Virus record (IMG/VR): IMGVR_UViG_2648501186_000019
Coordinates: 1 to 19,644 of that record
Strand: one strand, 5' to 3'
From: a virus
Taxonomy: Duplodnaviria; Heunggongvirae; Uroviricota; Caudoviricetes
Length of the DNA: 19,644 nucleotides
Part shown: piece by piece, positions 1 to 15,172 of the stretch
Layout of the letters: each line of letters opens with the position of its first letter
How positions within the stretch are numbered: the stretch's first letter is position 1
Translations under genes and position numbers: made by a program
The notes under the pieces: model-generated
What the model was told of the DNA's origin: nothing
Databases searched by the model: none
The model's input: only the letters and a program-made list of their open reading frames with translations

Positions 1-273
1 ATGAACATCGGTAAAGCAATCATCAACTACGCAGCACGTCGCAACATGGACATTACCTTGATTGACGATGAGACCGTGGCGTTCTGGGAAGCGGATAACG
101 ATTGTGAATGGATGTTCTCCTACATGATTGGTAATGATGGTTTCCTCCACTTTAAAGGGAATGTGTATCTGCCGCAGGAGATTAAAGAAGAATTACCAGC
201 GTGCATCGATACAGACAAGAAGCTGAAAGAAGTAATCAACTTTATCGCAAACGAGTTTATCAGCAAGAAGTAA
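1..273 (+). CDS. hypothetical protein (90 aa); ATG at window position 1, so the true start may lie upstream
   Basis: Open frame 1-273 ending in TAA at 271-273. No recognisable motifs. The antisense ORF 120-581 is judged spurious. Confidence 0.45.
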   Translation: MNIGKAIINYAARRNMDITLIDDETVAFWEADNDCEWMFSYMIGNDGFLHFKGNVYLPQEIKEELPACIDTDKKLKEVINFIANEFISKK

Positions 274-285
274 GGCAGCAAAACA

Positions 286-672
286 ATGTTCAATATCATG
301 ACTCGTAAATTTGGTGAGATGACTTTCGAGAAAGCTGGTGTTGCTCGTACCGAAGAAGAAGCAATGGCCTTAGTTCTGGTAGCACTGAGATCATCAACTG
401 AGATTATCGACGCTGAATATGTAGCCGCAGAAGGTGAGATTAACGAGATTAAAGCGGTGGCTAAGGAATTAGGTGTTAAAGGTTTCCGTAAGCTGAGACT
501 ATCCCGCGAGTCATATGTAATTGGTAAGCAAGGACAATACCTAGATGAGAATACCGTGATTATTCTACTGAATAAGATCACCCGCTATGGTTTCCAGATT
601 GAGCAATATAAAACGTGTTTCGAATTATACGAAAAAGGTTTGCTGGATACTCTGACCATCGTTCGCGCTTAA
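286..672 (+). CDS. hypothetical protein (128 aa)
   Basis: ATG at 286 follows the upstream stop by 12 nt with an AAGG Shine-Dalgarno-like sequence. Acidic, probably helical, no recognisable motifs. Confidence 0.55.
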   Translation: MFNIMTRKFGEMTFEKAGVARTEEEAMALVLVALRSSTEIIDAEYVAAEGEINEIKAVAKELGVKGFRKLRLSRESYVIGKQGQYLDENTVIILLNKITRYGFQIEQYKTCFELYEKGLLDTLTIVRA

Positions 673-686
673 TTAATTTCTAATTT

Positions 687-712
687 GGTGGGTGCAATTC
701 CCACCGCTTTTT
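687..712 (+). terminator. rho-independent terminator candidate
   Basis: Stem GGTGGG (687-692) pairs with CCCACC (700-705) around a 7-nt loop, followed by GCTTTTT (706-712), directly after the 128-aa ORF stop. Confidence 0.55.
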
Positions 713-729
713 AAACTGGAGAATCAAAC

Positions 730-810
730 ATGTTAGCTTTTATCTCATTCGTGGGAGGTAGTCTCACAACCATGATTAGTCTTTCTTATATTGTCGTTAG
801 TATGGGGTGA
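730..810 (+). CDS. speculative small hydrophobic peptide (26 aa, MLAFISFVGGSLTTMISLSYIVVSMG)
   Basis: ATG at 730 preceded by GGAG (717-720); the whole peptide is hydrophobic. Below the length cutoff of the ORF track. Confidence 0.2.
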   Translation: MLAFISFVGGSLTTMISLSYIVVSMG

Positions 811-813
811 GCA

Positions 814-939
814 ATGAAACAATTTCATGATGGCATTTCATCTAAGACATTCAAGAAAGAATATAGCGGATTGTGTATTAACTGGATTGATTTGATTGGT
901 GCGGTTGTGTTTGGTCTGGTAATTAGCATCAATTTTTAA
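814..939 (+). CDS. speculative small membrane peptide (41 aa) with a C-terminal hydrophobic helix
   Basis: ATG at 814, stop TAA at 937-939. Sequence MKQFHDGISSKTFKKEYSGLCINWIDLIGAVVFGLVISINF has a polar N-terminus and a C-terminal transmembrane-like segment. Confidence 0.25.
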   Translation: MKQFHDGISSKTFKKEYSGLCINWIDLIGAVVFGLVISINF

Positions 940-942
940 CGA

Positions 943-959
943 TATAAATATATCGTAAT
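943..959 (+). promoter_or_regulatory. TATAAATA box within the palindrome CGATATAAATATATCG; candidate phage (late-type) promoter
   Basis: TATAAATA at 943-950 lies 30 nt upstream of ATG 981, with the AAGAGGA Shine-Dalgarno sequence in between. The 15-nt string TAAATATATCGTAAT (945-959) recurs exactly on the - strand at 15881-15895. Confidence 0.35.
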
Positions 960-980
960 TCATTCAAAGAGGATTCAATT

Positions 981-1322
981 ATGAAAAAGACTATCTACGC
1001 AATTATTGTTTCTGTGTGTGTTGGTGGCATCGGTGGATTTGTTTGTGGGTATGACTATTCCGATACTCAACATCAAGAGACTATCCGGTCAAATAAGGCC
1101 GAGATTAAGGATCTGAATCAGGAGATTAGCCAGTTAGAAAATGCTCTCTCACTCAAAGACAGTGAATATAGCGAGGTTTATGCAGATAAACAAAAATATT
1201 GGAAAGAGAAAGATAATCTCGTTGTTTACGGGATGAAATTGTGTAAGAGCATGAAGGACGAGCGCAGTTGTTTAATGGAACTTGCCCTTAAAGGTAACGT
1301 GACCATCGACTTCAAAGACTAA
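981..1322 (+). CDS. membrane-anchored coiled-coil protein (113 aa); function unknown
   Basis: Strong RBS AAGAGGA. N-terminal hydrophobic helix (IYAIIVSVCVGGIGGFVCG) followed by a heptad-like charged region and two C-terminal Cys. No lipobox. Confidence 0.6.
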   Translation: MKKTIYAIIVSVCVGGIGGFVCGYDYSDTQHQETIRSNKAEIKDLNQEISQLENALSLKDSEYSEVYADKQKYWKEKDNLVVYGMKLCKSMKDERSCLMELALKGNVTIDFKD

Positions 1323-1351
1323 TTAATTCAAATAACAAAGAGGATTCTATT

Positions 1352-1597
1352 ATGAAAAAGATTATCGCTGGTGTTGTTCTTGCTCTGGGTTTGGTTGGTG
1401 CTGCTAATGCGGATCAATATGTACAGGGTGATAGTGTCAAGCGTGCTGCCGTTGCACCTTCTTTAAATCAACTGTGTACTGAATTAGCACAGGTTGCCGG
1501 AGTTGGTGACGATGACGACTTTATTACTGCGTGTGTATGGAGTCATATCGAGGATATTAATAAACGTGATGCAAAACTAACTGGAAAGAAATATTAA
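1352..1597 (+). CDS. small secreted protein with a Sec-type signal peptide (81 aa)
   Basis: RBS AAAGAGGATTC nearly identical to that of the preceding gene. N-terminus MKKIIAGVVLALGLVGAANA|DQ resembles a signal peptidase I substrate; no lipobox Cys. The mature part has two Cys and a DDDD patch. Confidence 0.6.
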   Translation: MKKIIAGVVLALGLVGAANADQYVQGDSVKRAAVAPSLNQLCTELAQVAGVGDDDDFITACVWSHIEDINKRDAKLTGKKY

Positions 1598-1613
1598 TGA
1601 CTTACTAACCAAT

Positions 1614-1650
1614 GCCCCTATCGTTATAATACACGGTAGGGGCGTTTTTG
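1614..1650 (+). terminator. rho-independent terminator candidate upstream of the recombinase gene
   Basis: Stem GCCCCTATCG pairs with CGGTAGGGGC (one G-U pair) around a 10-nt loop containing TTATAAT, followed by GTTTTTGTTT. Confidence 0.55.
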
Positions 1651-1662
1651 TTTGGAAATGGT

Positions 1663-3342
1663 ATGAAAACTAAACTGTATTCGTATATTCGCTTCTCTTC
1701 AATGAAGCAAGCGGATGGTAGTTCTTATGAACGCCAAAAGAGAACAGCCGCAGAGATAGCCGCAAAATATGACCTTGAACTGGTTACTTCCTATCAGGAT
1801 TTTGGTGTATCTGCATTCAAAGGGGCTAACAGTAGAACAGGTGCATTATCTCGTTTTCTGGATGAAATTGGTCGATCCGTTCCGGTTGGTAGCTGGCTGG
1901 TTGTGGAAAACTTAGACCGTATCTCTCGCCAATCCATCATTGAAGCACAAGAGCTATTTCTCTCGATTATCCGTAGGGGAATAACTATCGTAACTGGCAT
2001 GGATGGTAAGGTCTATAGCAAGGAATCGGTTAATGCCAATCCTATTGATTTGCTGTTGAGTGTCATGTTGTTTGCGAGAGCTAACGAGGAAAGTCAGACT
2101 AAGCGCAATCGTACTAACTCAAGCGCATTGATTAAGATTAAAGCTCATCAAGAAAATCCACAAAATCCGGCTGTTGCAATCGAGGAAATTGGAAAGAATA
2201 TGTGGTGGACTGATACCACATCTGGTTATGTGCTTCCTCATCCGGTCTTCTTCCCTATTGTTCAGGAGGTTGTGGAATTACGCAGGAATGGACGGTCAAC
2301 CGCCGAGATACTGGATCACCTTAACGCGACATACACACCACCACCAGCCGCAAGTCACAAGAGGCATTCAAACTGGTCACGGGCAATGATTGAAAGGTTG
2401 TTCCATACCCGCGCTTTGATTGGTATCAAGGAAATCTCTGTAGATGGCGTTAAGTATGAGTTAAAGGATTATTATCCTCGTGTGCTAGATGACGCTGAGT
2501 TTTATCACCTTAAGAAAAGCATTGGTGTTAGAGCATGTAACTATGGAGACAAGGAAGAAGTTAAACCTATTCCCTTGCTTAGTGGTGTTGGTCTATTGAA
2601 ATGTGAACATTGCGGTTCCGCTATGGTTAAGGTGAAAGGAACTAACAAACGTCCTAACCAATATCGTTATTCATGCGATGCAATGCGCTCTAGTCGTATT
2701 GCATGTGTGCATACAAACTGGAGTTTTCGAGGTGATCAATTAGAGAAAGCTGTATTGCAATTGCTGGCTGATAAAATCTGGATTGCTGAGGATAAGGCTA
2801 ATCCGGTTCCGGCTTTGAAAGTACAGATTGATGAAATATCACGCAAGATTGATAACCTGATTACCCTTTCTGCTATGACAGGAGCAACGAAGGAGTTAGC
2901 CGACCAGATTACTACCCTCAATAGCGAGCGTGAAACACTCTACAATCAGATTAAGATGGCAGAAGAGGAAATGTATTCTGTGGACTCTCAAGGCTGGGAG
3001 AAGCTCGCAGAATTTGATTTAGAAGATGTTTATAACGAGGATCGCATTAAGGTCCGGTTTAAGATTAAGCAAGCTCTAAAACGGATCGGGTGTAGCAGGA
3101 TTGACAAATACAAAAACTTGTTTGTACTGGAATACATTGATGGTAAGACCCAGAGAGTTGTAATAGAAAATTCAAGAGGACCGAGGAAAGGCCGGATCTT
3201 CGTTGATTTGAAGACCATCAATGATAGGCAGATTCTGGAGAGTAACGGGCTTGTTTTGCATCCATGTTTAGACATGCTGACAGATAAGAACTGGAAACCA
3301 GAAGAGGAAATACCAGGTCCATTACAGGAATTTGGAATTTAA
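1663..3342 (+). CDS. large serine recombinase (serine integrase/resolvase family), 559 aa from ATG 1663
   Basis: N-terminal catalytic motif YSYIRFSSMKQ...SYERQ (Y-x-R-x-S nucleophile region), a large central domain, a Cys-rich zinc-ribbon-like segment (CEHCGS...YSCD...IACVH) and a coiled-coil-like stretch. The track start at 1648 is TTG; ATG 1663 is preferred. Confidence 0.9.
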   Translation: MKTKLYSYIRFSSMKQADGSSYERQKRTAAEIAAKYDLELVTSYQDFGVSAFKGANSRTGALSRFLDEIGRSVPVGSWLVVENLDRISRQSIIEAQELFLSIIRRGITIVTGMDGKVYSKESVNANPIDLLLSVMLFARANEESQTKRNRTNSSALIKIKAHQENPQNPAVAIEEIGKNMWWTDTTSGYVLPHPVFFPIVQEVVELRRNGRSTAEILDHLNATYTPPPAASHKRHSNWSRAMIERLFHTRALIGIKEISVDGVKYELKDYYPRVLDDAEFYHLKKSIGVRACNYGDKEEVKPIPLLSGVGLLKCEHCGSAMVKVKGTNKRPNQYRYSCDAMRSSRIACVHTNWSFRGDQLEKAVLQLLADKIWIAEDKANPVPALKVQIDEISRKIDNLITLSAMTGATKELADQITTLNSERETLYNQIKMAEEEMYSVDSQGWEKLAEFDLEDVYNEDRIKVRFKIKQALKRIGCSRIDKYKNLFVLEYIDGKTQRVVIENSRGPRKGRIFVDLKTINDRQILESNGLVLHPCLDMLTDKNWKPEEEIPGPLQEFGI

Positions 3343-3380
3343 GCGGCCTAAATCGACGTATAACGAGCTAAAATAGTTAA

Positions 3381-3403
3381 GGGGTACAGATGTACCCCTT
3401 TTT
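3381..3403 (+). terminator. rho-independent terminator after the recombinase gene
   Basis: GGGGTAC (3381-3387), loop AGAT, GTACCCC (3392-3398), then TTTTT (3399-3403). Confidence 0.7.
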
Positions 3404-3437
3404 AATTTAATTGCGTTAGGCAGCGTAAGCAAGTTTC

Positions 3438-3474
3438 ATAGTAGTTTCCTCTAAAATAATAAGTTCACTACTAT
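3438..3474. repeat. inverted repeat ATAGTAGT / ACTACTAT with a 21-nt AT-rich spacer; CACTACT-like motif recurs at about 3492-3502 and 3559-3568
   Basis: Direct reading of the recombinase-helicase intergenic region; the two arms are exact reverse complements. Confidence 0.45.
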
Positions 3475-3618
3475 TTATCAGAGAAAATTGTCTTACTATT
3501 GCATTCTCTATCTGGATGTGGGTATAGGCGGGATTGAATACGGCAAAACTGAAACATTCCACTACTGCAATAAATCACTAAACAATATAAAGAATATTGC
3601 AAGTGTGGAGTGGAACTA

Positions 3619-5109
3619 ATGCAAGATATTAAAATTCATTTTCAAGATTACAGTTTCGTTAAGGTTGATTGCTCTCCTTCTATCGGAATGGAATTAAGAG
3701 ATTATTTCTCGTTTGAGGTTGAAGGGGCTAGGTTTAGCCCCCGTTACAAGTATTCTGGCTGGGATGGACGAATAAGACTGTTTACGCATGAAAACACCCT
3801 ACCAATTGGACTATTAAAAACGTTGGGTGTCTTCGTTAAAAATATGGGCTATTCAGTCTGGATTGACCCCAGATTGCTTGAGAAGGAAGATGTAACCAAA
3901 GACGCGATTAATGAATGGATTGATTCCTTAGAAGTGTATTCCGGTAGCAATAAAATCAATCCTTATTGGTATCAAAGGGAGGCAGTCTTTCAGGGTATCC
4001 ACAATCGCCGTAGAATGCTGGTTCTTCCTACCAGTGCCGGAAAGTCATTGATTGCTTGTATGCTGTCTCGTTGGTACTTAGAGAACTACACCGGAAAAGT
4101 GTTAATCATTGTTCCGACTACATCGCTAGTGGTTCAAATGAGGGATGATTTCATCGATTATAGGCTATTCCCTTATGAAGCAATTCATACAATGATGAGT
4201 GGTAGCGGGAAACATCCGGGAGACAGGTTAATCACGGTTAGTACATGGCAATCAGCGTGCAAGATGCCTCCTGAATGGTTCAAACAATATGGAATGTTGA
4301 TAGTTGATGAATCGCATAAGGCTAGTGCCAAAAATATTACCAATATCATTAACGGAATGAATCATTGCCAATTTAAGATCGGCATGACTGGTTCCCCTAA
4401 AGAATCAAAATGCCATCTTTTACAGTATGTCGGACTTTTCGGTGATATTTCTAAGATCGTGAGTATTGACCGCCTGATGGAAGAAGGGCAGGTGACAAAA
4501 CTGAAAATTAACTGTCTTTTCCTTCGTTATACCGATGAGGAATGTAGCGCGGTTAAGGGGCGAGAATATGCGGAAGAGATCAAGTATATTACATCTAACC
4601 CACGACGAAATAAGTTTGCTTGCAATTTGGCGCTAAAACTCGCTAAGAAGGGCGAAAACGTATTCCTGATGTTCCGCAATACTAAGCACGGAAAACTTAT
4701 GTATGATGCGTTACAGAAGGTACACGACAAGGTTTATTATATTGACGGTGGAGTTAAGACAGAAGAACGAGACGAGTTCAAAAAATTAGCGGAAGGGGAA
4801 ACAGGGATCATTTGCGTTGCATCCTATGGTGTGTTCTCTACTGGTGTTTCCATCAAGAACTTGCATCATGTTATTTTCGGTCATCCAGTGAAGGAATCAA
4901 CTATCGTTCGTCAGAGTATCGGTCGTGCATTGCGTAAACATGGTTCTAAGGATATTGCAACGGTCTGGGATCTTATAGATCATTTGTGTATATTCGGTCG
5001 TAACGGAAAAGTCAAGCATAAAAATTATGCGGTAAAACATGCACTTGAGAGAATCCGCTATTATTTGACCGACAAGTTCAGCTATGCAACTAAAACAATT
5101 GCTATATAA
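3619..5109 (+). CDS. uvsW: SF2 DNA helicase of the T4 UvsW type (497 aa from ATG 3619)
   Basis: Walker A LPTSAGKS, DExH box LIVDESHKA, motif III-like TGSP, C-terminal helicase motifs (VASYGVFSTGVSIKNLHHV, QSIGRALRKHGSK). The N-terminus MQDIKIHFQDYSFVKVDC and overall pattern track the T4 UvsW sequence as I recall it. RBS GGAG 8 nt upstream of ATG 3619; the track start at 3610 is GTG. Confidence 0.85.
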   Translation: MQDIKIHFQDYSFVKVDCSPSIGMELRDYFSFEVEGARFSPRYKYSGWDGRIRLFTHENTLPIGLLKTLGVFVKNMGYSVWIDPRLLEKEDVTKDAINEWIDSLEVYSGSNKINPYWYQREAVFQGIHNRRRMLVLPTSAGKSLIACMLSRWYLENYTGKVLIIVPTTSLVVQMRDDFIDYRLFPYEAIHTMMSGSGKHPGDRLITVSTWQSACKMPPEWFKQYGMLIVDESHKASAKNITNIINGMNHCQFKIGMTGSPKESKCHLLQYVGLFGDISKIVSIDRLMEEGQVTKLKINCLFLRYTDEECSAVKGREYAEEIKYITSNPRRNKFACNLALKLAKKGENVFLMFRNTKHGKLMYDALQKVHDKVYYIDGGVKTEERDEFKKLAEGETGIICVASYGVFSTGVSIKNLHHVIFGHPVKESTIVRQSIGRALRKHGSKDIATVWDLIDHLCIFGRNGKVKHKNYAVKHALERIRYYLTDKFSYATKTIAI

Positions 5110-5110
5110 C

Positions 5111-5140
5111 AAAAAAAGCGCCCACTAGAGGCGCTTTAAT
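5111..5140. terminator. bidirectional rho-independent terminator between convergent helicase and endolysin genes
   Basis: A-tract, stem AGCGCC (5117-5122), 7-nt loop, GGCGCT (5130-5135), T-rich tail; reads as hairpin plus U-tract on both strands. Confidence 0.6.
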
Positions 5141-5141
5141 T

Positions 5142-5495
5142 TTATCCATGCCAGCGTGATTTTTTCGATCTGGAATCGATATGCGTAAAGGTTTTATATT
5201 TGCCTAAGCCGTATTGAGTAGGATATTTCCCATCAAGATAAGCATGGACAATATCAGGAGAAATTCCTTTCACTGATATGTCGGCCGCACGGCCTCGAAC
5301 ATGATAGCTATTGGTTGCACCGCCTACATTCTTGTTATGAGTCGGACAACGGTTCCCGCTGTTAATAATTACTGGTTTCCCGAAGTGTTCGCGTACATCC
5401 TCAAGAATTACCAGCAGTTCAGCGTCGATAGTATCATAATCACATTTTCCGCATTTACATTTAAATTCCTTGCGAGAAAAATGCTTGCTTAACAT
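5142..5495 (-). CDS. endolysin, zinc peptidase M15 family (L-alanyl-D-glutamate peptidase / D-Ala-D-Ala carboxypeptidase-like), 117 aa
   Basis: H-x6-D zinc motif (SYHVRGRAADI) and downstream His (FTHID), as in Peptidase_M15 endolysins. ATG at 5495 has a strong AGGGGG Shine-Dalgarno sequence; the track start at 5531 is TTG. No signal peptide visible. Confidence 0.8.
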   Translation of the reverse strand: MLSKHFSRKEFKCKCGKCDYDTIDAELLVILEDVREHFGKPVIINSGNRCPTHNKNVGGATNSYHVRGRAADISVKGISPDIVHAYLDGKYPTQYGLGKYKTFTHIDSRSKKSRWHG

Positions 5496-5505
5496 ATTAC
5501 CCCCT

Positions 5506-5853
5506 TTAGATGTATTGCATAAGATACCCAATAAATCTGAGTCCCTTAATGTAATAAGGTGCTGTGCCTATGCATACCGCTCGTGCATCACCAATACAAT
5601 TGAAGTTGTAAGGGTTAACTACATCAATCTCCTGCCCTACACGGAAGCGGTATTTAGGACGTTTAGCGAGTGTCGCAACACAAAACACTAACCCGTTACC
5701 ATCATCGCGGATCATTTGCTTGAATTGTTTATGCTTTACTCTCTTCGCCTCGTAATCAAGTGTCATTGATTCAGGGCTAATGCCATTGATAAAAATACCG
5801 GAAAGCTGGTCGACCGGATAAGTAGGAAATTCAGTGAAAATATTTTTAGCCAT
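5506..5853 (-). CDS. hypothetical protein (115 aa), translationally coupled to the endolysin
   Basis: Strong GGGGGT Shine-Dalgarno sequence before ATG 5853; the stop is 10 nt before the endolysin ATG. No TM segment and no recognised motif; three Cys. Confidence 0.6.
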   Translation of the reverse strand: MAKNIFTEFPTYPVDQLSGIFINGISPESMTLDYEAKRVKHKQFKQMIRDDGNGLVFCVATLAKRPKYRFRVGQEIDVVNPYNFNCIGDARAVCIGTAPYYIKGLRFIGYLMQYI

Positions 5854-5891
5854 GTTATACCCCCATAAGATTCTATGAGGGTATTTATGGA

Positions 5892-6497
5892 TTAAACGAA
5901 GTTGATTTTACCCATGAAGTGCTTTTTCATCTTCTTCTGGATATTCTTCTTCATCGTTTTCTCATTATCTTTCCAACTACCCATGATGTTACTACGGTCT
6001 GTTTTCTTCAACACTGCAACAAGTCGCTTCCCTAGCTTTTTCTTGTTCTTCATGTCGGCTTTAACGGATGGATCGAGAAGCAGTATTTTACCAGTCTTAG
6101 ATTTTGTGGTTACATACTTCCCTATTTTCTTACCGTTTCTGAGTTGTGGAATGTTACCAAACTGGTTAGTTCGGTCATCAGTTACAGGAACAAATTTCTC
6201 AATATTATTACCACCTTCAAAGTAATATTTTAAGTATTTTTCCTGATTCTTCATGATGAAAACACTATGGTAAGACGTTTTACCGCTTGAGCGTATCCGG
6301 TTGTATGAATTGACCGCTTTCTGTGTGAACTTGGTCGGTCGATCTATCCTTGAATTGACTTTCTTCTGCAACTTTACCCGCTCATCTATGACCGCTAAAC
6401 CCAAATCCCTATGAAAGCTATTACTAGCTTTCTGTTTCCAACTCTTGATATCTTTTTTTACTTTATCAATATTGGATGTGATTATTGGATTAGCCAT
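5892..6497 (-). CDS. highly basic lysine-rich protein (201 aa), function unknown
   Basis: AGGGGG Shine-Dalgarno sequence; ATG 6497 lies 1 nt after the upstream stop. Very Lys-rich with a poly-basic C-terminus (KKNIQKKMKKHFMGK). Confidence 0.6.
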   Translation of the reverse strand: MANPIITSNIDKVKKDIKSWKQKASNSFHRDLGLAVIDERVKLQKKVNSRIDRPTKFTQKAVNSYNRIRSSGKTSYHSVFIMKNQEKYLKYYFEGGNNIEKFVPVTDDRTNQFGNIPQLRNGKKIGKYVTTKSKTGKILLLDPSVKADMKNKKKLGKRLVAVLKKTDRSNIMGSWKDNEKTMKKNIQKKMKKHFMGKINFV

Positions 6498-6498
6498 G

Positions 6499-6669
6499 TT
6501 AGCCCCCTAATAACGAAAAGACCCCCGCCAGTGTCCTTAGCAATTGTTCATCCACGGTCATAGCCGGGAGTTCAAGCCCAAAGGACGTTAGCAGAGGTCT
6601 AATTGCTACGTTATAAGTGAGGGCGACAATCAAGAGATAACCAAAATATTTCTTAAGTTTATTCTTCAT
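6499..6669 (-). CDS. small membrane protein (56 aa from ATG 6669); holin-like or immunity candidate
   Basis: AAGGGG Shine-Dalgarno sequence 7 nt before ATG 6669. Sequence MKNKLKKYFGYLLIVALTYNVAIRPLL... has a basic N-terminus and one or two hydrophobic helices; no lipobox. Confidence 0.45.
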   Translation of the reverse strand: MKNKLKKYFGYLLIVALTYNVAIRPLLTSFGLELPAMTVDEQLLRTLAGVFSLLGG

Positions 6670-6688
6670 ATATTCACCCCTTTTATTA

Positions 6689-6967
6689 TTATTTTTGTCT
6701 GAGTAAATCGATAACTTGGTCAAATTTGGCGTCCATCGCAACCACTTTCTTCTCTATACCGTGAAGGGTTTGTTCCATGCGATAAACTCTCTCGGCGATC
6801 TGGTCATGGTTACTTTGCATTGTTTCAAACTTCTGATTAAACAATGCATCATTGGACTCTAATTTCGACAATCTATTTTCTGTTGCTATTTGATTTCGGT
6901 GAAGTCTCCATAATCCACCACAAATTAAGGCGATAACACCGATACCGCCATATATAATTTCAGTCAT
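6689..6967 (-). CDS. single-pass membrane protein with a coiled-coil domain (92 aa)
   Basis: N-terminal TM segment (IIYGGIGVIALICGGLW) followed by a charged helical region. GGGGG Shine-Dalgarno sequence before ATG 6967. First gene after the terminator downstream of the gpJ-like gene. Confidence 0.6.
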   Translation of the reverse strand: MTEIIYGGIGVIALICGGLWRLHRNQIATENRLSKLESNDALFNQKFETMQSNHDQIAERVYRMEQTLHGIEKKVVAMDAKFDQVIDLLRQK

Positions 6968-7011
6968 TACGCCCCCGATATTTTTATATAGTTTAATGGC
7001 AAAATTATTTA

Positions 7012-7054
7012 GATAAAAATAATCCCGCCTAACTCAAAAGAATTAAGCGGGATT
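7012..7054 (-). terminator. rho-independent terminator after the gpJ-like gene (- strand)
   Basis: 8-bp stem AATCCCGC / GCGGGATT (7021-7028 with 7047-7054), followed on the - strand by a U-rich run (AUUUUUAUCU). Confidence 0.6.
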
Positions 7055-7073
7055 TATTATTAAAAATTAAATT

Positions 7074-10000
7074 TTAAGAAACAGTAATACCAGTAGTGGC
7101 TTTTTTAGTTACCATTACTGTTAAATCACTGATCCATGTGCTAGGCGTCCAGTTGTTGATTGCGCTTGATTGCACTTCAAAGGTCAAGGTCACAGCACCT
7201 TTACCCGCTGGCATATCAATAACACCTGAGTAAAGACCAGTATTACCGCCATACGCCCTATTATACAACTCTGACCCATTCTTACGAACAATCAGGCGAC
7301 AGGTGTCGTAATAGGTATTATTGTTCGACCCTTCACGCGCTCGCAATCCACCAAAACTAACAGCCGGAATAACGATTTGACGATCGAACTTGTGATCATC
7401 TTCAACGCGAACAGTGACCGTACCCTGTGGATAACCAGCATAACCATTATCAACGTTAACATCACGATGCGGGAACTTACGTCCAATCACCTTAACGAAA
7501 TCACCCTTAACCTGAGTAGCTTCAAGCATACCCTTAATAACACAGCTAGAGTTAATCGTGACGTTGTTCAGAGTACCAGAATCAGCAGTGATATTACCTT
7601 TAACGGTTGCATTCATGAACGTAGCGGACCCGTTCTTGTTGATATGCCATCCGGTCGATCCGTTCCAGTTGGAAGACTGGATATAGTTACCGATTTTAGC
7701 GTTATCAATTGCACCGTTTACGATCTTCGCGTTAGTGATTGCCCCGTCCTGAATCTTCGCGCTGTTAATTGCAGCATTGCCGATTTTAGCCGTGGTAATC
7801 GCCGCATCATTAATCTGGGCTGTACCAATTGCAGCATTACGAATCATCGCATTATCGAGATAAACCTTGTTACCTTCGATACCAAACGGGCATACTTCCG
7901 ATCCGTTCTGTGGAGCTACCGCGATTTTATCGGCATTAAAGATGATTCTCGTCGGTTGCGCCGGATCGTTGGTTGCGCTCATGTGAATACCAGCCACGCG
8001 ACCATCTGCATTAACCGCTAGATTGTATTTGCTGTTAATGGTTCCTTTCAAAGCATCGATTTTTACATCTGCTTCCTGATTCACACCAGCAATCTTGCCA
8101 TCCATTTCTACCCGAACTTGATCAATCTTACTTGCGCTTGCTGCCTCACTGGTAGCAATAGCTTGTTTCAGGGTAGTAGCAGATGCGCTGACTTCGGATT
8201 TAATATCGCCTTTCAGTTCAGCTTTAACCTGATCAATCTTAGTGGAGCTAGCTTGCTCGCTGGTAGCAATCAGACTCTTTAAGGTATTGGCTGAGGCTTG
8301 GACCGTCTGCCCTGTTTCGGTAGTGATTTGCTTATGCATTGCATCAATTTTAGCATCGGCATTAGCGCCAGCTTGAGCAATAGCATCCGCGATAGTTTCA
8401 TCTAAGCGGTCTTGTAAACCAATCAGGTCTTCCAGTGCTTCTTTGTCCTGATCGTCCCAGCTAATGGTAGATTTCATTTGCATGAAATACGGTTCAGACC
8501 AAACAGCATCATCCATACCGAAAATATCGTAGTGAGCACCACGGATATAATAATCACCGTCAGCAATATCAAAGGAAGTATGGCTAACACTATTCGTGCT
8601 TACTGCCCTTGCATCGGAGAACGTGTTATCGGTTGCATACTGGATGATTGACCCTGCATAATCATGTTCTACGTCATCTGCCCAGCTAACAAACGCAGTA
8701 TTAAAGCCACCACGCGCACTAAAACCTTTCATTGGCTTATGTTGTGGGTTGATAGCCACTAAACGCGCTGGGGCGCTCTCTGAGTTGTTATATCCCTTAG
8801 CTGATACTTCTACCGTCAGTTGACGCGAAAGGCCGTTAAACTGGTTCATATCAAGCGTATAAGTCCATGATTCAGGATCGCGGGTACGGTACTGAATAGA
8901 CTTACCAGCCTTGTTAGTCACCTTGATAATGTATGCTTCAAACAGGTCACTAAACTTGTTAGTTTCACCGTTGATCTCAACATCTAAGCCTTGCTGGTTA
9001 TCCCATTCGATAATCAGATCATTACCTTCGAAAGTTCCTGGCGTGCTACCCTGATTTTTGATTCGAATAACCGGAGTCGGCAATTCATAGGTAACAGTCG
9101 GATTCTGGTTAATCAGTTCTACCCAATCGGATCGCGCGATGATACCGAAAGCACAAACTCGGTAATCATAAGAGCGATCTTTCGCCAGTGCATTGACACT
9201 GAAAATTTGCTGTGAAGTCTGACCGAGCTTAATCCAGTTAGGTGATCCGCTTACACGGTAATCAATCTGGAAGCCATAACGGTTAAAATCTTCCGGTGCA
9301 TCCCATGTCAAAGTAACATTTTTACCGTAAATCGTCTCGCCAGTTGCCTTAATTCTGAAATTAGTAGGCTTCTGTACTGTCATTGAATCCGGTAAACCAC
9401 TTGGTCTATTGTCCGGTTTAGCCGCATAATCCAGATCTGTGTAAATCTGAGAATTATATTCTGTGGCGGTGATAGACAAAATACCAGCAATACCAGAATC
9501 AATGCTACGCTCAATAGAGATAATACGCCAAAGTGAATTATTCAGTTTCAATTCATCGTGGGTAACGCTGATAACGTCCCAAACTTCCGCGCTGAATGCA
9601 TCGGTAGTAGTGAAGTTGATAACCTGAGTAATACGAGATTTATTTCGTTCAATGCTCGCTAATTTGTCAATCTGGTTTTCATCTTTAACAAAGCGATATT
9701 CTACGTCTTTAGCAATAATGCGCCCATCTTGACGGATAGTAGCATCATTTTCAGCATCAGCCGGATAACGTAGCATTTGCTCTGAATAGTCTAAAGATGG
9801 TTCCTGATAGATTGCGTTAATGGTATTGAAATAACCGTTAGTGCCACCTGTTTTCAGGTTAACTTTCCCCATCATTATATTGTCTTCATTGAAGGTATGT
9901 TTAACAATATCAGGAGCATCCAGTTTCAGCGTAATACGTCCAAAGGATTCAAACATTACCCCGCCGAAAGTCTGCATCAATCCGGTCAAGTTCTCTTTAA

Positions 10001-10856
10001 AGCTGGCGTTCGGATCACATGCACCGTTAGAGTGCAAATTCATCTGGCGAACTTGAGAACGTACTTTCAGGAATGAATCAACGTTAATGTTTTCAATTGG
10101 TACTGATAAACCATATTTTTCATTTGTTAGGTAGTGGAAAATCTGATCCACGCCGTTAGTGCTAGCCTCAATAGCATTGGTTTCAAGGTTACGAATCTTT
10201 AATCCGCAAACGTCTACTGCTACCTGGCTATTTGGCTGGAGAATATCAACACCAGCAGCAAGAGATTTGTCATCACGACGTAACACAATACACATGGTTG
10301 CAATGCCGTTACCCTTGTAAGCATCGGTCCAGTCTGAGCCTAAATGAGTTTTTGCCAGTGACAATGCGGTGTTAGGATTCTTACCCGTGCGGAACTCGAC
10401 TTCTAACACTTTACGGTATTCTTCTTTAATGTTGCCCTTATCGAGAATGCCATCACGGATCGTCATGTTTCGACCAATCAGCACGTTTTTATTATCGATG
10501 AATAGTGCTTTGTAATGGTCAATTTCACCCTCGGCAATTGCGAAGATTTGCACTAACTTATTGTTTTCTTTCTTAGAAATTGCTTTGTAAACACAGATAG
10601 CACCAGTTCGAGTAGTACCAAAAATAACTGGTAATACTGTTTTAGGATCGTTTGATGTTCCTAGTGTCACTGCGTTATCTGGGCTTTGTACCTTCGGTGT
10701 TTTCGGTGCGCCTACAGTGGAAGCAATCAAAGACAATGCACCAGCACCAATACCGATAGCAACAGCCGCTAATGTTGAAATTGCCGCCACGGAAGCAGCA
10801 GCCATCCCAGCCGACGCACCAGCAATAACCGCGCCGACCAATACTTCTACGCCCAT
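7074..10856 (-). CDS. tail tip central fibre / host specificity protein (gpJ-like) with an N-terminal gpI-like domain and a lambda-J-type C-terminal receptor-binding domain (1260 aa)
   Basis: ATG 10856 with a GGGGG Shine-Dalgarno sequence, overlapping the upstream stop. Residues 1-50 are a Gly/Ala-rich hydrophobic segment, followed by APKTPK...VLPVIFG..R.G, reminiscent of the lambda gpI C-terminal half. The middle has FN3-like segments, a duplicated helical segment and 8-residue (A)IxNAKI repeats. The C-terminus (DDHKFDRQIVIP...VIDMPAGKG...VMVTKKATTGITVS) follows the pattern of the lambda J C-terminal domain as I recall it. Confidence 0.9.
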   Translation of the reverse strand: MGVEVLVGAVIAGASAGMAAASVAAISTLAAVAIGIGAGALSLIASTVGAPKTPKVQSPDNAVTLGTSNDPKTVLPVIFGTTRTGAICVYKAISKKENNKLVQIFAIAEGEIDHYKALFIDNKNVLIGRNMTIRDGILDKGNIKEEYRKVLEVEFRTGKNPNTALSLAKTHLGSDWTDAYKGNGIATMCIVLRRDDKSLAAGVDILQPNSQVAVDVCGLKIRNLETNAIEASTNGVDQIFHYLTNEKYGLSVPIENINVDSFLKVRSQVRQMNLHSNGACDPNASFKENLTGLMQTFGGVMFESFGRITLKLDAPDIVKHTFNEDNIMMGKVNLKTGGTNGYFNTINAIYQEPSLDYSEQMLRYPADAENDATIRQDGRIIAKDVEYRFVKDENQIDKLASIERNKSRITQVINFTTTDAFSAEVWDVISVTHDELKLNNSLWRIISIERSIDSGIAGILSITATEYNSQIYTDLDYAAKPDNRPSGLPDSMTVQKPTNFRIKATGETIYGKNVTLTWDAPEDFNRYGFQIDYRVSGSPNWIKLGQTSQQIFSVNALAKDRSYDYRVCAFGIIARSDWVELINQNPTVTYELPTPVIRIKNQGSTPGTFEGNDLIIEWDNQQGLDVEINGETNKFSDLFEAYIIKVTNKAGKSIQYRTRDPESWTYTLDMNQFNGLSRQLTVEVSAKGYNNSESAPARLVAINPQHKPMKGFSARGGFNTAFVSWADDVEHDYAGSIIQYATDNTFSDARAVSTNSVSHTSFDIADGDYYIRGAHYDIFGMDDAVWSEPYFMQMKSTISWDDQDKEALEDLIGLQDRLDETIADAIAQAGANADAKIDAMHKQITTETGQTVQASANTLKSLIATSEQASSTKIDQVKAELKGDIKSEVSASATTLKQAIATSEAASASKIDQVRVEMDGKIAGVNQEADVKIDALKGTINSKYNLAVNADGRVAGIHMSATNDPAQPTRIIFNADKIAVAPQNGSEVCPFGIEGNKVYLDNAMIRNAAIGTAQINDAAITTAKIGNAAINSAKIQDGAITNAKIVNGAIDNAKIGNYIQSSNWNGSTGWHINKNGSATFMNATVKGNITADSGTLNNVTINSSCVIKGMLEATQVKGDFVKVIGRKFPHRDVNVDNGYAGYPQGTVTVRVEDDHKFDRQIVIPAVSFGGLRAREGSNNNTYYDTCRLIVRKNGSELYNRAYGGNTGLYSGVIDMPAGKGAVTLTFEVQSSAINNWTPSTWISDLTVMVTKKATTGITVS
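7692..7859 (-). repeat. imperfect 24-nt (8-codon) tandem repeats inside the gpJ-like gene
   Basis: Protein-level repeats NAAIGTAQI / NDAAITTAKI / GNAAINSAKI / QDGAITNAKI / VNGAIDNAKI and matching DNA periodicity. Confidence 0.5.
8117..8330 (-). repeat. roughly 110-nt imperfect tandem duplication inside the gpJ-like gene (helical shaft segment)
   Basis: DNA blocks at about 8117-8227 and 8228-8330 share TGATCAATCTTA...GCTTGCT..CTGGTAGCAAT. Protein segments TLKSLIATSEQASSTKIDQVKAELKGDIKSEV and TLKQAIATSEAASASKIDQVRVEMDGKIAG are clear paralogues. Confidence 0.45.
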
Positions 10857-11275
10857 AGATCACCCCCAAAGCGATAAGCATCGTTATAATCAATTTCGTA
10901 AATCGGCTTGGTCGTCCAGATTCCATCTTCGGTAACGAGTCCATAGCCAGAATAATAAGGAGTCACGGAGTAATACTTACGGTTTCCTAATTTGTGATCG
11001 CGGATCAATAGATCGCCGTCCTGTAAATCATCAGTAACTAATTTAAAATGTTCTTTGATAGGCTGGAGGATATTGGTATATCCGCTAAGTTCTTTACAGA
11101 CTTTCAAGCCTTCTTCTTTCGTTGAATATTTTTTATAAAGAGAATTATATAGGTCAGTTCCAGCGAGAATATCGATGATCTTACATGCAATTAAATTGCA
11201 ATCATTCTCGCCTTGAACGAACTCCTGACCTACTAATGAATTGATGTAATCAGTGATAAGCCTAGTTTTTAGCAT
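10847..11275 (-). CDS. tail tip assembly protein, gpK-like with NlpC/P60-type Cys/His residues (about 142 aa)
   Basis: ATG 11275 preceded by GGAGG at 8-nt spacing. Motif GENDCNLIAC and downstream His (IRDHKLG) are consistent with a papain-like NlpC/P60 fold. Position between the gpL-like and gpJ-like genes. The track ORF extends to 11521 but overlaps the upstream gene. Confidence 0.5.
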   Translation of the reverse strand: MLKTRLITDYINSLVGQEFVQGENDCNLIACKIIDILAGTDLYNSLYKKYSTKEEGLKVCKELSGYTNILQPIKEHFKLVTDDLQDGDLLIRDHKLGNRKYYSVTPYYSGYGLVTEDGIWTTKPIYEIDYNDAYRFGGDLWA

Positions 11276-11324
11276 GTTGAATACCTCCATGCTGTTATTT
11301 ACTAGGCTTAGGGAGAAGGGATTA

Positions 11325-11978
11325 TTACTTTTTAGAGCTAAACCATTTTGATTCCGCGTTCCAGCGACCCGCCCTTGAGAAGAATAGATCGTTCTCGTTT
11401 CCTGGGTATGAGCGATGAATACCATCAGAAGCATGACTACGAGCGTTTTTATCGAGAACTTCCCAGATACTATTAAGCTGGAACTCTGATTCGTTGGTAC
11501 ATTCTTTATCCTTGTAGTCAATAGAAATATTGATGTTATCGACTACACCACGGAAAACAGGGTAAGTGGTTTCAACCTTGCCCGTGTTGGGGTTCAAGAA
11601 TACCATTTCGATTTTCACATCTGATTTATCGAATTGCTTGTTTCGAATGAGAGTAATGTATTCTTCTCGAACGTTCGAAACGTTAACGGTGATCCCGTTG
11701 TTGTTGATTTCTTTTTCTTCGGAGTTGGAAGAAATATCAAGAAAGTCACCGCTAGCGAGATAGGTAAATCCGTTATAGTCTAAGTCAAAGTACCCATCTG
11801 TAAGCCGTAGAACGTCCCCTGACGCGGTAATCACTTCGATAATGTGAAACATCGATCCGGTGGAAAAAAGCTGCGGTAGCGTCAATCTGGTAACTTCCTG
11901 CCCCGTCTGGTCGTTGTATACCTCGATAAAGTCAATATTGGTACAGAGTTTATTAAATGCGTCTTGAATAGTAGCCAT
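11325..11978 (-). CDS. minor tail protein, gpL-like (217 aa)
   Basis: Synteny (TMP, M, L, K, J) and N-terminal and mid-region resemblance to lambda gpL as recalled. Start ATG overlaps the upstream stop (TAATG). Lacks the C-terminal Cys cluster of lambda L. Confidence 0.55.
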   Translation of the reverse strand: MATIQDAFNKLCTNIDFIEVYNDQTGQEVTRLTLPQLFSTGSMFHIIEVITASGDVLRLTDGYFDLDYNGFTYLASGDFLDISSNSEEKEINNNGITVNVSNVREEYITLIRNKQFDKSDVKIEMVFLNPNTGKVETTYPVFRGVVDNINISIDYKDKECTNESEFQLNSIWEVLDKNARSHASDGIHRSYPGNENDLFFSRAGRWNAESKWFSSKK

Positions 11979-12538
11979 TATACATTCTCCACTAATTCAA
12001 ATTTCATCTTGCCAATCTGGGCGATGTTCCAATCGATGTTTTCAGTAGTGAGAAGAAATTCACCTTCAACGTTCTGATACTTGATCACCTCACCCGCTAG
12101 GACGTTCTGACGCAAGTTAGGGAAGAGTTTCATTTCACCACCTGATTTCACGTCTTCGGTGATCGTGTAGATTTTCTTGTGGTTCTCAAACTGGATGATA
12201 GTTCCCGCTTTCAGTGTTCCGGTGAAGTTGGAGAGTCTCACCTTACGCCCACCGCGAGCAGTACCAGCAGCAGCCGTAACCATCTGGCGTACATCACCTG
12301 TATATTTTGAAAAGTAAGACAGCGGAACAGTGAACGGACGACCAAAAAGGTGACGTGCTACAAATTCTTTTACTTCGTTAATATCCTGAGCCATGAAATT
12401 AGCTGTAAATTCTGCTTCATAGTAATGAATACCAGTAAAGCGACGCTGGAACTTACCAGAAATGGATTGCGCCTTGAAGAAAGGTTGTTTTGATTTAAGA
12501 GTAAAATCTGTGATTTTAATATTCTTGGATTTGAACAT
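11978..12538 (-). CDS. minor tail protein, gpM-like N-terminal region with a C-terminal extension (about 186 aa)
   Basis: First gene after the tape measure. ATG around 12538 is preceded by GGGGG inside the hairpin; the track start at 12574 is a GTG lying within the hairpin stem. Weak resemblance to lambda gpM in the first 100 residues. Confidence 0.5.
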   Translation of the reverse strand: MFKSKNIKITDFTLKSKQPFFKAQSISGKFQRRFTGIHYYEAEFTANFMAQDINEVKEFVARHLFGRPFTVPLSYFSKYTGDVRQMVTAAAGTARGGRKVRLSNFTGTLKAGTIIQFENHKKIYTITEDVKSGGEMKLFPNLRQNVLAGEVIKYQNVEGEFLLTTENIDWNIAQIGKMKFELVENV

Positions 12539-12541
12539 AGA

Positions 12542-12588
12542 AAAAGCCCCCATAGTTTTATGATTATTTATCACTATGGGGGCTTTTA
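12542..12588 (-). terminator. perfect 14-bp inverted repeat hairpin between the tape measure and gpM-like genes; attenuator/terminator candidate
   Basis: AAAAGCCCCCATAG ... CTATGGGGGCTTTT with an 18-nt AT-rich loop, an A-tract on one side and a T-tract on the other. The loop contains GATAAATA. Coordinates are +/-1. Confidence 0.5.
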
Positions 12589-12589
12589 A

Positions 12590-15109
12590 TTACATTCTAC
12601 GACGCTGGGCGTCTTCTACTGCTTGGGCAACAAGTTTCGGATGGCGTTTAATCGCTTCCATTACCATTGCATCAGAGCTATTAACGTTACCGCTAATTTG
12701 CAAAGGAGCATGTACCTCAATCGGCTGAGAGTTACCAGTGTTACCGGATTTCTGGTTAGCTAAGAAGTCTTTCAGATCGCCGTTAGTACGATCATCAACA
12801 ACTCGTTCCCCTTTCTGTAACAGCCATGTACCCTCACGCGGGATGTTATCAATACCGTCATGCGCCATACCGTCAACAGAGATTGATTTCATCTGCGCAA
12901 CACGAGCGATTGCAGAAGCATAGCTAGCAGCACCCATCGCAACACCCAACGGTCCAGGATACTTAGCCATAGCCTTAGTTGCGGCTTCGTGTGCGTTCAT
13001 CATACCCATTGCGATAGAAACGCCTTTCTGTGCTGCAAATAGTCCCTTAGTAACAGCGTTATTCTCTAAGCCAAATGCTTGTAACGCCTCACCAAATCCA
13101 CCGAACATATCCTGTGTATCTTGCAAGCGCATGTTATTGTATTTTAAGTCAATTTCACGCATTTTCTTTTGATGCGCTTCATTGAGTGCTTGCAGTGCTT
13201 TAAATTGTTCAGCTTGAGGCAGTTTATCAATGTTGGCTTTATGGGTAGCGTAATCAGCATTAGCATTATCAACATCAACGGCTTTCATCTCGTCAATAGT
13301 CTGATCACGTTCACCGAAGGAGTTAGCTAGACCACGAGATTTGATTTCTTGTAGTCCATCGGTCGCACCAGTACGGCCTTTGTAAGCATCTTCAATACGC
13401 TGTTTTTCTGCCAGATAATCCGCTAATTTGATGTTTTTATTCTGGTAGTTTTCTTCCAGATCTTTAAGGCTTTGTTCATAAACCTGTTTAGAAGCAGCCA
13501 ACATTTGCAGGGCTTCCATTGGATTTGCACCTAATACAGATTTACGGAAGTTTTCCGCGTTAGCATTAATTAGCTGGCGTCGTTTCTCTTCGTATTGTTC
13601 TTGCGTGATAATACCCTGTTTAAGAGCGTTATCTAACTTAGCAAGGTTTTCGGTAATCTGACGGTTAGAAGACGCCACAGCAGCTTGTGACGAGCTATAC
13701 AAAGAGATATTGATGGCCTTCAAATCATTGTAGGCTTTTTCTCTTAATTTTTTGGCTTCGTCTGCGGCTTTCTTCGCTGCATCTTTAGCTTTCTTGGTTT
13801 CTGGACAATCTGCGGCTGAATGCGCACCTTGCTTACATACAGGGCAAAGAGATTGAACACGGCGTTTATTCTCTTCTTCCTGTTTCTTTTTCAGTTCATC
13901 GGCTTGTGTTTGCAGTTCAGCAGCTTTGCGTTTGCGTTCTTGTTCTGCTAGATCTTCGAAGCTGGTTGCAGCACCGTTACTAACACCGCTTGCGATGGCT
14001 TCCTCTACCGCATCACCTAATGCTTTAGCACCTTTCTTGATGTTATCGGTAGTCAATGCTGGGATTTCAAAATCAAGAAAATCGGCATCAGCACCAAACC
14101 AGCCAGCAATAGTTTTACCACCCTTGCGGATCGCATTCTGTACTTTAGCGATAATCTCGGCTAGTTTGTTGTACAGATTAATCATTGTTTCCTGTACAGT
14201 TTTAACCGTCTTGATTATCGGGTTAATTGCTGTAAGTAGAGCATCCTTAGCTTTCTGGAATAACGGCGGGAGATTTTCGGTCACAAACTTACTAATAGCT
14301 TTCATACTCAAATAGAAAGTAGTATTAGTAAAATCCTTGTTGAAATAATCATAGATTAAGTTGAATCCTTTCGGGAGGAACGAAAATACATCCGCGAAAG
14401 CACCCATTACCGTTTTACCTAAAGCGGTCAAATTAGAACTTGCGTTTGAATACGCGGTCGCTGTTTCTTCTGAGACATAAGCGGCTTGTTGTTGGAGCTT
14501 AACTTGATGTTCCCAATAGTCGTTTGATTCAGACAAAGCACCGATCATCTTACTGGAATCAGAAGCAATTCGTTCCATACCCGCGATAATTTCAGAATGG
14601 CTTAGTCCTGCGGCTTTAGCTTGGTAATACCACATTTCAGCAGCTTTGCGACCGCCTTCTGGATCATCGGTAAAGGCTGCATAATCCTTGATATCGCCTT
14701 TGATCATTTTAAGCGCGGCTTGAAATTCCCCTGTACCGTCTCGCCATGCTTCCCCTAATTTCTCGGCTGCATCCTTGTTAATATCAAGAACTTTTTCGGC
14801 ATTCAGACCAAAGCCACTATAGACTTTTTCCATCTTCTGAATTTGTTCGATATTAACACCAAATTCTTTCGACATATTGGCATATTCGATAGCCATTTTT
14901 GCGCCACCAGCAGCAAGGGCAGTAAGAGCACCCAAAGCAGCACCAGCAGCCATCCCCAATGGACCCAGCTTACCTAACAATCCACTGATAGAGCCAGTTA
15001 AATTACCGACACCACCGGAGGCAAGACCATCAAGAATACCACTTGCTTTATCTGCGGCAGATTCAAGACCACCAGTAACGCCAGTAATATCAAATCTTAA
15101 TTCTGACAT
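12590..15109 (-). CDS. tail tape measure protein (839 aa)
   Basis: Position directly after the chaperone pair; length comparable to lambda gpH; long helical charged repeats and Gly/Ala-rich hydrophobic segments. Strong AAGAGG Shine-Dalgarno sequence before ATG 15109. Confidence 0.85.
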   Translation of the reverse strand: MSELRFDITGVTGGLESAADKASGILDGLASGGVGNLTGSISGLLGKLGPLGMAAGAALGALTALAAGGAKMAIEYANMSKEFGVNIEQIQKMEKVYSGFGLNAEKVLDINKDAAEKLGEAWRDGTGEFQAALKMIKGDIKDYAAFTDDPEGGRKAAEMWYYQAKAAGLSHSEIIAGMERIASDSSKMIGALSESNDYWEHQVKLQQQAAYVSEETATAYSNASSNLTALGKTVMGAFADVFSFLPKGFNLIYDYFNKDFTNTTFYLSMKAISKFVTENLPPLFQKAKDALLTAINPIIKTVKTVQETMINLYNKLAEIIAKVQNAIRKGGKTIAGWFGADADFLDFEIPALTTDNIKKGAKALGDAVEEAIASGVSNGAATSFEDLAEQERKRKAAELQTQADELKKKQEEENKRRVQSLCPVCKQGAHSAADCPETKKAKDAAKKAADEAKKLREKAYNDLKAINISLYSSSQAAVASSNRQITENLAKLDNALKQGIITQEQYEEKRRQLINANAENFRKSVLGANPMEALQMLAASKQVYEQSLKDLEENYQNKNIKLADYLAEKQRIEDAYKGRTGATDGLQEIKSRGLANSFGERDQTIDEMKAVDVDNANADYATHKANIDKLPQAEQFKALQALNEAHQKKMREIDLKYNNMRLQDTQDMFGGFGEALQAFGLENNAVTKGLFAAQKGVSIAMGMMNAHEAATKAMAKYPGPLGVAMGAASYASAIARVAQMKSISVDGMAHDGIDNIPREGTWLLQKGERVVDDRTNGDLKDFLANQKSGNTGNSQPIEVHAPLQISGNVNSSDAMVMEAIKRHPKLVAQAVEDAQRRRM

Positions 15110-15131
15110 ATTAACCTCTTATTCTTATTAT

Positions 15132-15163: not shown

Positions 15164-15172
15164 ATAATTCAA

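Follow-up and report, generated by a model that had tools for sequence, protein, structure and literature searches.

What do the four genes that separate a tail-tip gene from an endolysin gene encode in an essentially unstudied group of tailed phages? The question is raised by a 19,644-nucleotide (nt) stretch of DNA from a Caudoviricetes virus (IMG/VR record IMGVR_UViG_2648501186_000019, positions 1 to 19,644; hereafter the window, meaning this whole stretch), in which five co-oriented minus-strand genes at 5142–6967 lie 3′ of the gene for a J-like tail-tip protein of 1260 amino acids (aa; 7074–10856). An earlier reading of the bare sequence (the original prediction) described these genes as an endolysin cassette with four unknown companions and neither a recognisable holin nor a recognisable spanin. 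Our analysis indicates that the stretch is probably a composite of tail completion and lysis functions rather than a pure lysis cassette. Two of the four unknowns can for the most part be accounted for as genes for virion completion at an unusual site, and the other two stay uncharacterised, as lysis candidates whose type is possibly new. From 5′ to 3′ the genes, with the short names used below, are:

6689–6967, minus strand: g92, a 92-aa protein with a transmembrane (TM) segment and a coiled coil
6499–6669, minus strand: g56, a small 56-aa membrane protein with an ATG start that is identical in the PGAP annotation
5892–6497, minus strand: g201, a basic 201-aa protein, predicted to be a tail completion protein (TCP) of the gpZ / HK97 gp10 type
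5506–5853, minus strand: g115, a 115-aa protein predicted to form a small beta-barrel
5142–5495, minus strand: M15 peptidase, 117 aa from its ATG, the predicted endolysin

All five are real genes, as evidenced by ratios of non-synonymous to synonymous substitution rates (dN/dS) of 0.06–0.24 against relatives from E. coli, Salmonella and Providencia, which indicate purifying selection. The same five open reading frames (ORFs) are called by PGAP (NCBI) in the closest complete genome (97% identity), where four of the five are labelled hypothetical. The tight coupling originally claimed holds for the Shine-Dalgarno sequences, which are of the GGGGG type and lie 5–8 nt upstream of every gene, and only in part for the stop-to-start gaps, which were given as 1–20 nt and measure 19 nt (g92 to g56), 1 nt (g56 to g201), 38 nt (g201 to g115) and 10 nt (g115 to the M15 gene).

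The extreme basicity ascribed to g201 is confirmed (isoelectric point 10.4, net charge +33), while the statement that this protein matches nothing proved wrong. Based on sequence profiles and a structural model, g201 is a predicted member of the gpZ / HK97-gp10 family, through a link that is distant and transitive, yet coherent. A profile search recovered 250 relatives, some of which carry the name 'HK97 gp10 family' in their source; 11 of 12 family members match phrog_1924 'minor tail protein' (best E-value 9.6e-48), and Pfam Minor_tail_Z (PF06763) is matched by 4 of 40 diverse members. More specifically, protein P0083, found by the g201 family profile (2e-20), clears the PF06763 gathering score (25.5 versus 23.9 bits) with a match that is collinear over profile positions 9–120 of 190. 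The AlphaFold2 model of g201 (pLDDT 81) combines an N-terminal helix (residues 10–50), an apical beta domain and a C-terminal helix (175–200), and a Foldseek search of this model against BFVD returns entries named 'tail component', 'HK97-gp10 putative tail-component' and 'minor tail protein' (top probability 1.0, TM-scores 0.45–0.62). The first TCP to be solved, gp51 of 80alpha, likewise has long N- and C-terminal helices joined by a loop/beta region, and an extra beta domain has been reported for lambda gpZ (PMC11661146). We also count the basic surface of g201 in favour of a TCP role, as it fits the DNA-end binding described for these proteins (PMC11661146).

[quoted passage not shown] It differs from known TCPs in a sequence too diverged for a direct Pfam match and in the position of its gene, which would be expected between the head-closure and the terminator or tube genes. 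We examined 13 enterobacterial loci, namely three E. coli types, Salmonella, Providencia, Serratia, Klebsiella, Pantoea, E. coli PSS-15, phage DCP80 and three viral contigs, and in 13 of 13 the g201 homologue is located after J and two membrane-protein genes. A scan of the GTDB species genomes with the g201 alignment gave no relatives. g201 is also the most mosaic gene of the cassette: its alleles among E. coli relatives measure 201 aa, 199 aa (~60% identity) and 227 aa (31%), the 227-aa form being present in most of them, and the flanking genes are nearly identical (window 5892–6497; L005 3786–4385; L006 3891–4574). A further location is seen in beta-proteobacterial lambda-like phages, in which the g201 homologue is the first late gene, placed between the gene for a Q-like protein, with terminators, and the small terminase gene (L002 5459–6576; L009 7056–8603), again outside the neck module and with no lysis genes nearby.

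The 115-aa protein was originally listed as an unknown, which still holds in that g115 has no match in Pfam, PHROGs or NCBIfam, but it can now be described as a conserved downstream partner of the TCP gene. Its homologue directly follows that of g201 in all 13 loci, an adjacency noted in PSS-15 (39% identity; alignment A4), Klebsiella, Pantoea, Serratia, DCP80 and three IMG/VR contigs. The family is small, as a profile search of 1.84 billion representatives yielded only 8 true clusters, all of 71–115 aa. In studied siphoviruses a terminator/THJP gene lies directly after the TCP gene, and THJPs are 115–182 aa long (PMC11099176 Table 1). In the neck region of the present phage, between the capsid and tube-like genes, there is only one gene of 96 aa and one of 140 aa in place of the four expected ones (adaptor, stopper, TCP, terminator), and we thus read the g201-g115 pair as displaced, that is, as a TCP–terminator pair that would have moved from the head-closure/tube slot to a site after J.

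Judged by synteny, size and a weak fold signal, g115 is most likely a candidate tail terminator or tail-to-head joining protein. The predicted fold is a small beta-barrel whose best structural matches are PilZ-type barrels; an hhalign comparison of the family with lambda gpU and HK97 gp11 found no similarity, and the family profiles of both g115 and g201 gave only chance-level matches to PDB sequences. g115 therefore differs from lambda gpU, HK97 gp11 (115 aa) and SPP1 gp17 in the lack of detectable sequence similarity, as well as in having no tube gene after it. The lambda order Z-U-(V)-G-T-H is mirrored in PSS-15, Pantoea, L047 and L048, where the pair is followed by two tail assembly chaperone (TAC) genes and a tape measure protein (TMP) gene. 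A PilZ or cyclic di-GMP receptor was rejected as an assignment for g115, as the resemblance at R65xxxR69 and N83xNxxG88 is lost in the wider family. A match to the 844-aa protein P0144, a eukaryote-like repeat protein, was judged spurious.

The order J, TM plus coiled-coil protein, small TM protein (phrog_2024), TCP and barrel protein is invariant in 13 of 13 loci, and one lineage has an endonuclease VII (EndoVII) gene inserted between the first and second membrane-protein genes. What follows the barrel gene varies: the M15 peptidase in the window lineage, Salmonella and Providencia, a GH24 lysozyme in Serratia, L049 and DCP80, TAC-TAC-TMP in PSS-15, Pantoea, L047 and L048, and a recombinase at the prophage end in Klebsiella. 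The endolysin of PSS-15, of the GH24 type, is encoded ~27 kb from the module with no membrane-protein gene beside it. As the module persists while the endolysin varies, it is a late-operon module tied to J and not to any one endolysin. This argues against both a moron and a strict endolysin cassette, and for a four-gene core of the late operon. In the PSS-15 lineage (L010; L041, L047, L048) the order of the tail genes has changed: TAC-TAC-TMP follow the barrel gene at one prophage end, and at the opposite end, beside the recombinase, Dit and the DUF2163 gene are found in inverted orientation, so that the attachment site splits the tail module.

The identification of the last gene as an M15 endolysin is well founded, with matches to Pfam Peptidase_M15_3 (PF08291; E = 4.5e-28, 98 bits versus a 23.2-bit cutoff) and to phrog_894 'endolysin' (1.7e-45) and an intact HxxxxxxD...H zinc motif (H65, D72, H106). 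Its closest solved relative is the D-Ala-D-Ala carboxypeptidase 1LBU. No signal peptide, signal-anchor-release (SAR) or other hydrophobic segment was found in it, and from these sequence features it is a predicted cytoplasmic endolysin, namely a LAS-type zinc peptidoglycan peptidase. Consistent with the original statement that no inner/outer spanin pair is evident, neither membrane protein has a lipobox (g56 is devoid of Cys and g92 has just A-L-I-C), and no credible spanin-like lipoprotein of the o- or u-spanin type, whether nested or separate, emerged when all start codons of the window and of the complete prophage were scanned. A 32-aa ORF embedded in g92 (6754–6852) was ruled out as an Rz1-like gene, having neither lipobox nor signal. 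The sole true lipoprotein of the prophage is a 190-aa Cor-like moron at the attL end. About 15% of the phages that infect Gram-negative bacteria lack a recognisable spanin, and one of them, phiKT, uses a cationic peptide (10.1101/515445).

Hydropathy and heptad analyses bear out the description of the two remaining products as a TM plus coiled-coil protein and a small membrane protein. g92 has an N-terminal hydrophobic segment at residues 3–20, with the TM part at about 4–20, followed by a charged coiled coil of 72 residues in which 0.88 of a/d positions are hydrophobic versus 0.10 elsewhere. In all eight homologues an acidic residue precedes the transmembrane domain (TMD) and both a Trp and a basic cluster follow it, and all have a hE.R(L/I)..(I/L)E motif and a strong heptad pattern. 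Following the positive-inside rule, this charge distribution predicts an N-out/C-in topology, the coiled coil being cytoplasmic. In g56 the N-terminus is basic and the single TMD contains an invariant Asn-x4-Pro-x5-Gly (alignment A6); the protein matches phrog_2024, of unknown function, at E = 0.0054 (1.9e-9 for its PSS-15 homologue). Both genes are under purifying selection (dN/dS 0.07–0.08 for g92, 0.08–0.14 for g56).

Both are small late membrane proteins with one TMD each, encoded upstream of the endolysin gene though not adjacent to it. Neither matches a known holin family, in agreement with the original prediction. The g92 family matches are weak throughout (DUF7201, 0.0023; phrog_12015, 3e-4; phrog_1296 'holin', 0.03; phrog_739 Rz-like, 0.03), with the score for phrog_1296 level with those for Rz-like and other coiled-coil families; the Serratia g92 homologue reaches 1e-4 against phrog_1296. 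The M15 and GH24 endolysins both lack an export signal, and a membrane-permeabilising function is therefore required. A hydropathy scan of all annotated genes revealed g92 and g56 as the only membrane proteins common to two complete divergent prophages, and by elimination g92 and/or g56 are plausible holin-type or lysis-control candidates, g92 being the better one.

The releasin of Mu, gp25 (DUF2730), is a 99-aa N-out/C-in protein with a 73-aa cytoplasmic domain (PMC9239132), and the LambdaSo protein Lcc6, which is essential for lysis, has 65 aa and is encoded at the far prophage end. g92 resembles them as the ~90-aa product of a late gene with a predicted N-out/C-in topology, almost no periplasmic part and a cytoplasmic domain of ~70 residues. 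It differs from Mu gp25 in its clear heptad coiled coil and in the endolysin it would serve, which is cytoplasmic and not of the SAR type, so that a strict releasin mechanism cannot apply. DUF2730 (PF10805) is absent among the Pfam matches of g92 up to E = 1. Compared with the lambda S-R-Rz/Rz1 cassette and with the T5 holin and M15-type endolysin, the stretch is similar in that a late transcript ends with the gene of an endolysin that has no signal, preceded by genes for small late membrane proteins, and in the swapping of the endolysin module among relatives (M15 or GH24). It departs from canonical cassettes in the two virion-type genes interposed, in the lack of a known-holin match and of a recognisable spanin, and in the endolysin gene located ~27 kb away in one lineage.

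Several observations weigh against assigning tail completion to g201 and lysis to the membrane proteins. The window g201 itself matches phrog_1924 only at E = 0.0028 and has no match in Pfam; its model finds nothing in the PDB by Foldseek with an E-value below 0.9; and an hhalign comparison of the family with lambda gpZ alone aligns just the N-terminal helix, with a probability of 5%. Relatives of g56 in phrog_2024 are present in T4-like phages, whose holin is already known as T, so that g56 on its own is an improbable holin. In the PSS-15 lineage the membrane-protein genes are far from that of the endolysin. Finally, the closest complete relative, RMDEC332, encodes a 92-aa protein with three TMDs at its attL end, together with a 76-aa TM protein and the Cor-like lipoprotein (L004 17499–19829), and this 3-TMD protein could be a class-I-like holin. 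As a holin common to the group it was set aside, being absent from PSS-15 and without a PHROG match. The 3-TMD ORF of RMDEC332 is located beside a TerS gene which lies 8 kb from TerL.

Three features were found at the boundaries and in the one long spacer of the cassette:

7054–7021, minus strand: intrinsic terminator directly after the J-like gene, with a 15-pair stem containing 6 GC pairs followed by a U tract; the upstream cassette boundary
5857–5884, minus strand: 12-bp hairpin in the g201-g115 spacer (RNAfold −17.8 kcal/mol), which sequesters the Shine-Dalgarno sequence of g115
5115–5137, both strands: bidirectional intrinsic terminator, shared with the convergent gene for a UvsW-like helicase (3610–5109, plus strand)

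These terminators, together with the ORFs and their dN/dS values, confirm the outline of five minus-strand genes between a terminator after J and a convergent one. The post-J terminator is kept in the Salmonella and Providencia relatives with compensatory changes. No sigma-70-like promoter was found on the coding strand upstream of g92. In several lineages the distance from the J stop to the next start is 40 nt or less and holds only a UUCG-type hairpin and a Shine-Dalgarno sequence, and there is therefore no room for a promoter. The spacer hairpin is identical among E. coli relatives with differing g201 alleles and partly retained in Salmonella; it may control g115 translation or mark a recombination boundary.

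In lambdoid phages the site after J is a classic one for exclusion genes. g92 and g56 might accordingly be superinfection-exclusion or injection-blocking proteins, or else membrane-associated assembly factors, the true holin being another lineage-specific gene such as the 3-TMD ORF. The use of this site in lambdoid phages, the terminator that separates J from g92 in the window lineage, the occurrence of phrog_2024 members in T4-like phages already provided with a holin and the presence of the 3-TMD ORF in the closest complete prophage are all consistent with this explanation. We nevertheless consider it unlikely, because g92 and g56 are core genes under purifying selection whose order is kept in 13 of 13 loci and which are coupled by Shine-Dalgarno sequences to essential late genes, with no sigma-70-like promoter in the window and no promoter room in other lineages. 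Furthermore, the 3-TMD ORF, the 76-aa TM ORF and the lipoprotein are all absent from PSS-15, which would be left without a holin candidate. The related suggestion in the original prediction, that moron, immunity or exclusion genes occupy this site, is contradicted by a core module that recurs in prophages of at least seven named genera, among them Escherichia, Salmonella, Providencia, Serratia, Klebsiella and Pantoea, and in phage DCP80, by the spacing of 40 nt or less after J, and by the essential tail genes that directly follow the module in one lineage.

It is much less probable that all five genes form a dedicated lysis cassette, with g201 and/or g115 as new non-virion lysis effectors, either a disruptin-like cationic disruptor of the outer membrane or a regulator of the endolysin. 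Such a role would suit the extreme basicity of g201 in a phage without recognisable spanin, for which the cationic peptide of phiKT offers a precedent (10.1101/515445), and it would agree with the position of the g201-g115 pair directly before the endolysin gene in the window, Salmonella, Providencia, Serratia and L049. This position is not general: in PSS-15, Pantoea, L047 and L048 chaperone and tape measure genes come after the pair and the endolysin is encoded elsewhere, and in beta-proteobacterial phages the homologue of g201 opens the late genes, ahead of terminase and without lysis genes nearby; the TCP family membership and fold signature of g201 also stand against an effector role.

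That g92 is instead a short inner-membrane spanin (Rz-like, type II, its coiled coil in the periplasm) whose partner in the outer membrane went unrecognised, g56 then being the holin, is the least credible explanation: an N-terminal TMD followed by a coiled coil is the Rz architecture and several g92 homologues weakly match 'Rz-like spanin' PHROGs (phrog_739, 9841, 7686; E = 3e-4 to 0.03), but these profiles score no better than holin or other coiled-coil families, the charge pattern predicts N-out/C-in with a cytoplasmic coiled coil for 8 of 8 homologues rather than the N-in topology of an i-spanin, and a lipobox ORF, nested or separate, is absent from the window and the prophage.

Returning to the composite of tail completion and lysis functions, what we observed directly is the gene structure and that it is conserved, the family and fold to which g201 is assigned, the shared gene order and the lack of a spanin-like lipoprotein; from these we infer all functional roles. 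By analogy with 80alpha gp51, SPP1 gp16.1 and lambda gpZ, g201 would occupy the lumen of the neck, cap the end of the DNA and touch the N-termini of the tape measure, and head-tail joining as well as the correct routing of DNA would depend on it. The co-inherited g115 would act as tail terminator or in tail-to-head joining. g92 and g56, jointly or singly, would permeabilise the membrane or release the M15 endolysin, which would then degrade murein, and disruption of the outer membrane would be spanin-independent or proceed via an unrecognised factor. A bolder version, which we regard as doubtful, takes the four-gene block after J as one functional unit in which g92 and g56 form an undescribed two-component holin or a releasin-like system that uses interchangeable cytoplasmic endolysins for spanin-free lysis, maybe coupled to the last step of tail completion.

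If g92 and g56 are the lysis trigger, they would represent a new holin-type family, of which the phrog_2024 half also occurs, with an unknown role, in hundreds of T4-like phages. For studies of how the outer membrane is breached, the group would provide a tractable prophage of E. coli in addition to the few phages without spanins that are available. For annotation, the locus suggests that neck genes may sit outside the neck module, and that 'missing' TCP and terminator genes may hide beside lysis genes.

The window represents one arm of a ~40 kb prophage inserted in hicB via a large serine recombinase (window 1648–3342). The best explanation of this element is a temperate siphovirus with a GTA-like (gene transfer agent) tail tip, with the five genes at the distal end of its late operon. 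Its tail module encodes a T4 gp37-like fibre, a 158-aa tube-like protein, tail assembly chaperones, an 839-aa tape measure, Dit, DUF2163 and DUF6950 proteins and a Phage_Tail_Tip protein; a holin or spanin annotation is found nowhere across the ~40 kb. The prophage is carried by 55 of 5426 complete E. coli genomes. Among 50,697 phage records a megablast search with the cassette gave no matches, meaning that no isolated phage is near at the DNA level, and a single record holds the four-gene module. Searches of phages by tblastn with g115, g92, g56 and the Serratia g92 homologue gave nothing useful.

Further features of the group concern its tail and its T4-type genes. Two paralogous tube-like proteins, both of phrog_158, measure 158 aa (window 16574–17050) and 277 aa (L003 35628–36461), and their genes flank that of the T4 gp37-like long tail fibre (window 17107–19587). 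The J-like protein has an N-terminal Gly/Ala-rich hydrophobic segment of ~50 residues, which is conserved in PSS-15 and DCP80 and unusual among J-like proteins. T4-type genes of the group encode the UvsW helicase, UvsY (in the Salmonella relative), endonuclease VII, a gp37/gp38-like fibre and adhesin, and the phrog_2024 membrane protein (sites at window 3610–5109, L037 8204–8611 and L007 7341–7796). The T4-like phages have a 65-aa ORF weakly similar to g56 between genes 56 and 61, on the late strand. Escherichia phage DCP80 (L001, PQ671644), of 141 kb and classed as a T4-like Gaprivervirus, carries the siphovirus J-like gene and the whole four-gene module, and its record is possibly a chimeric assembly.

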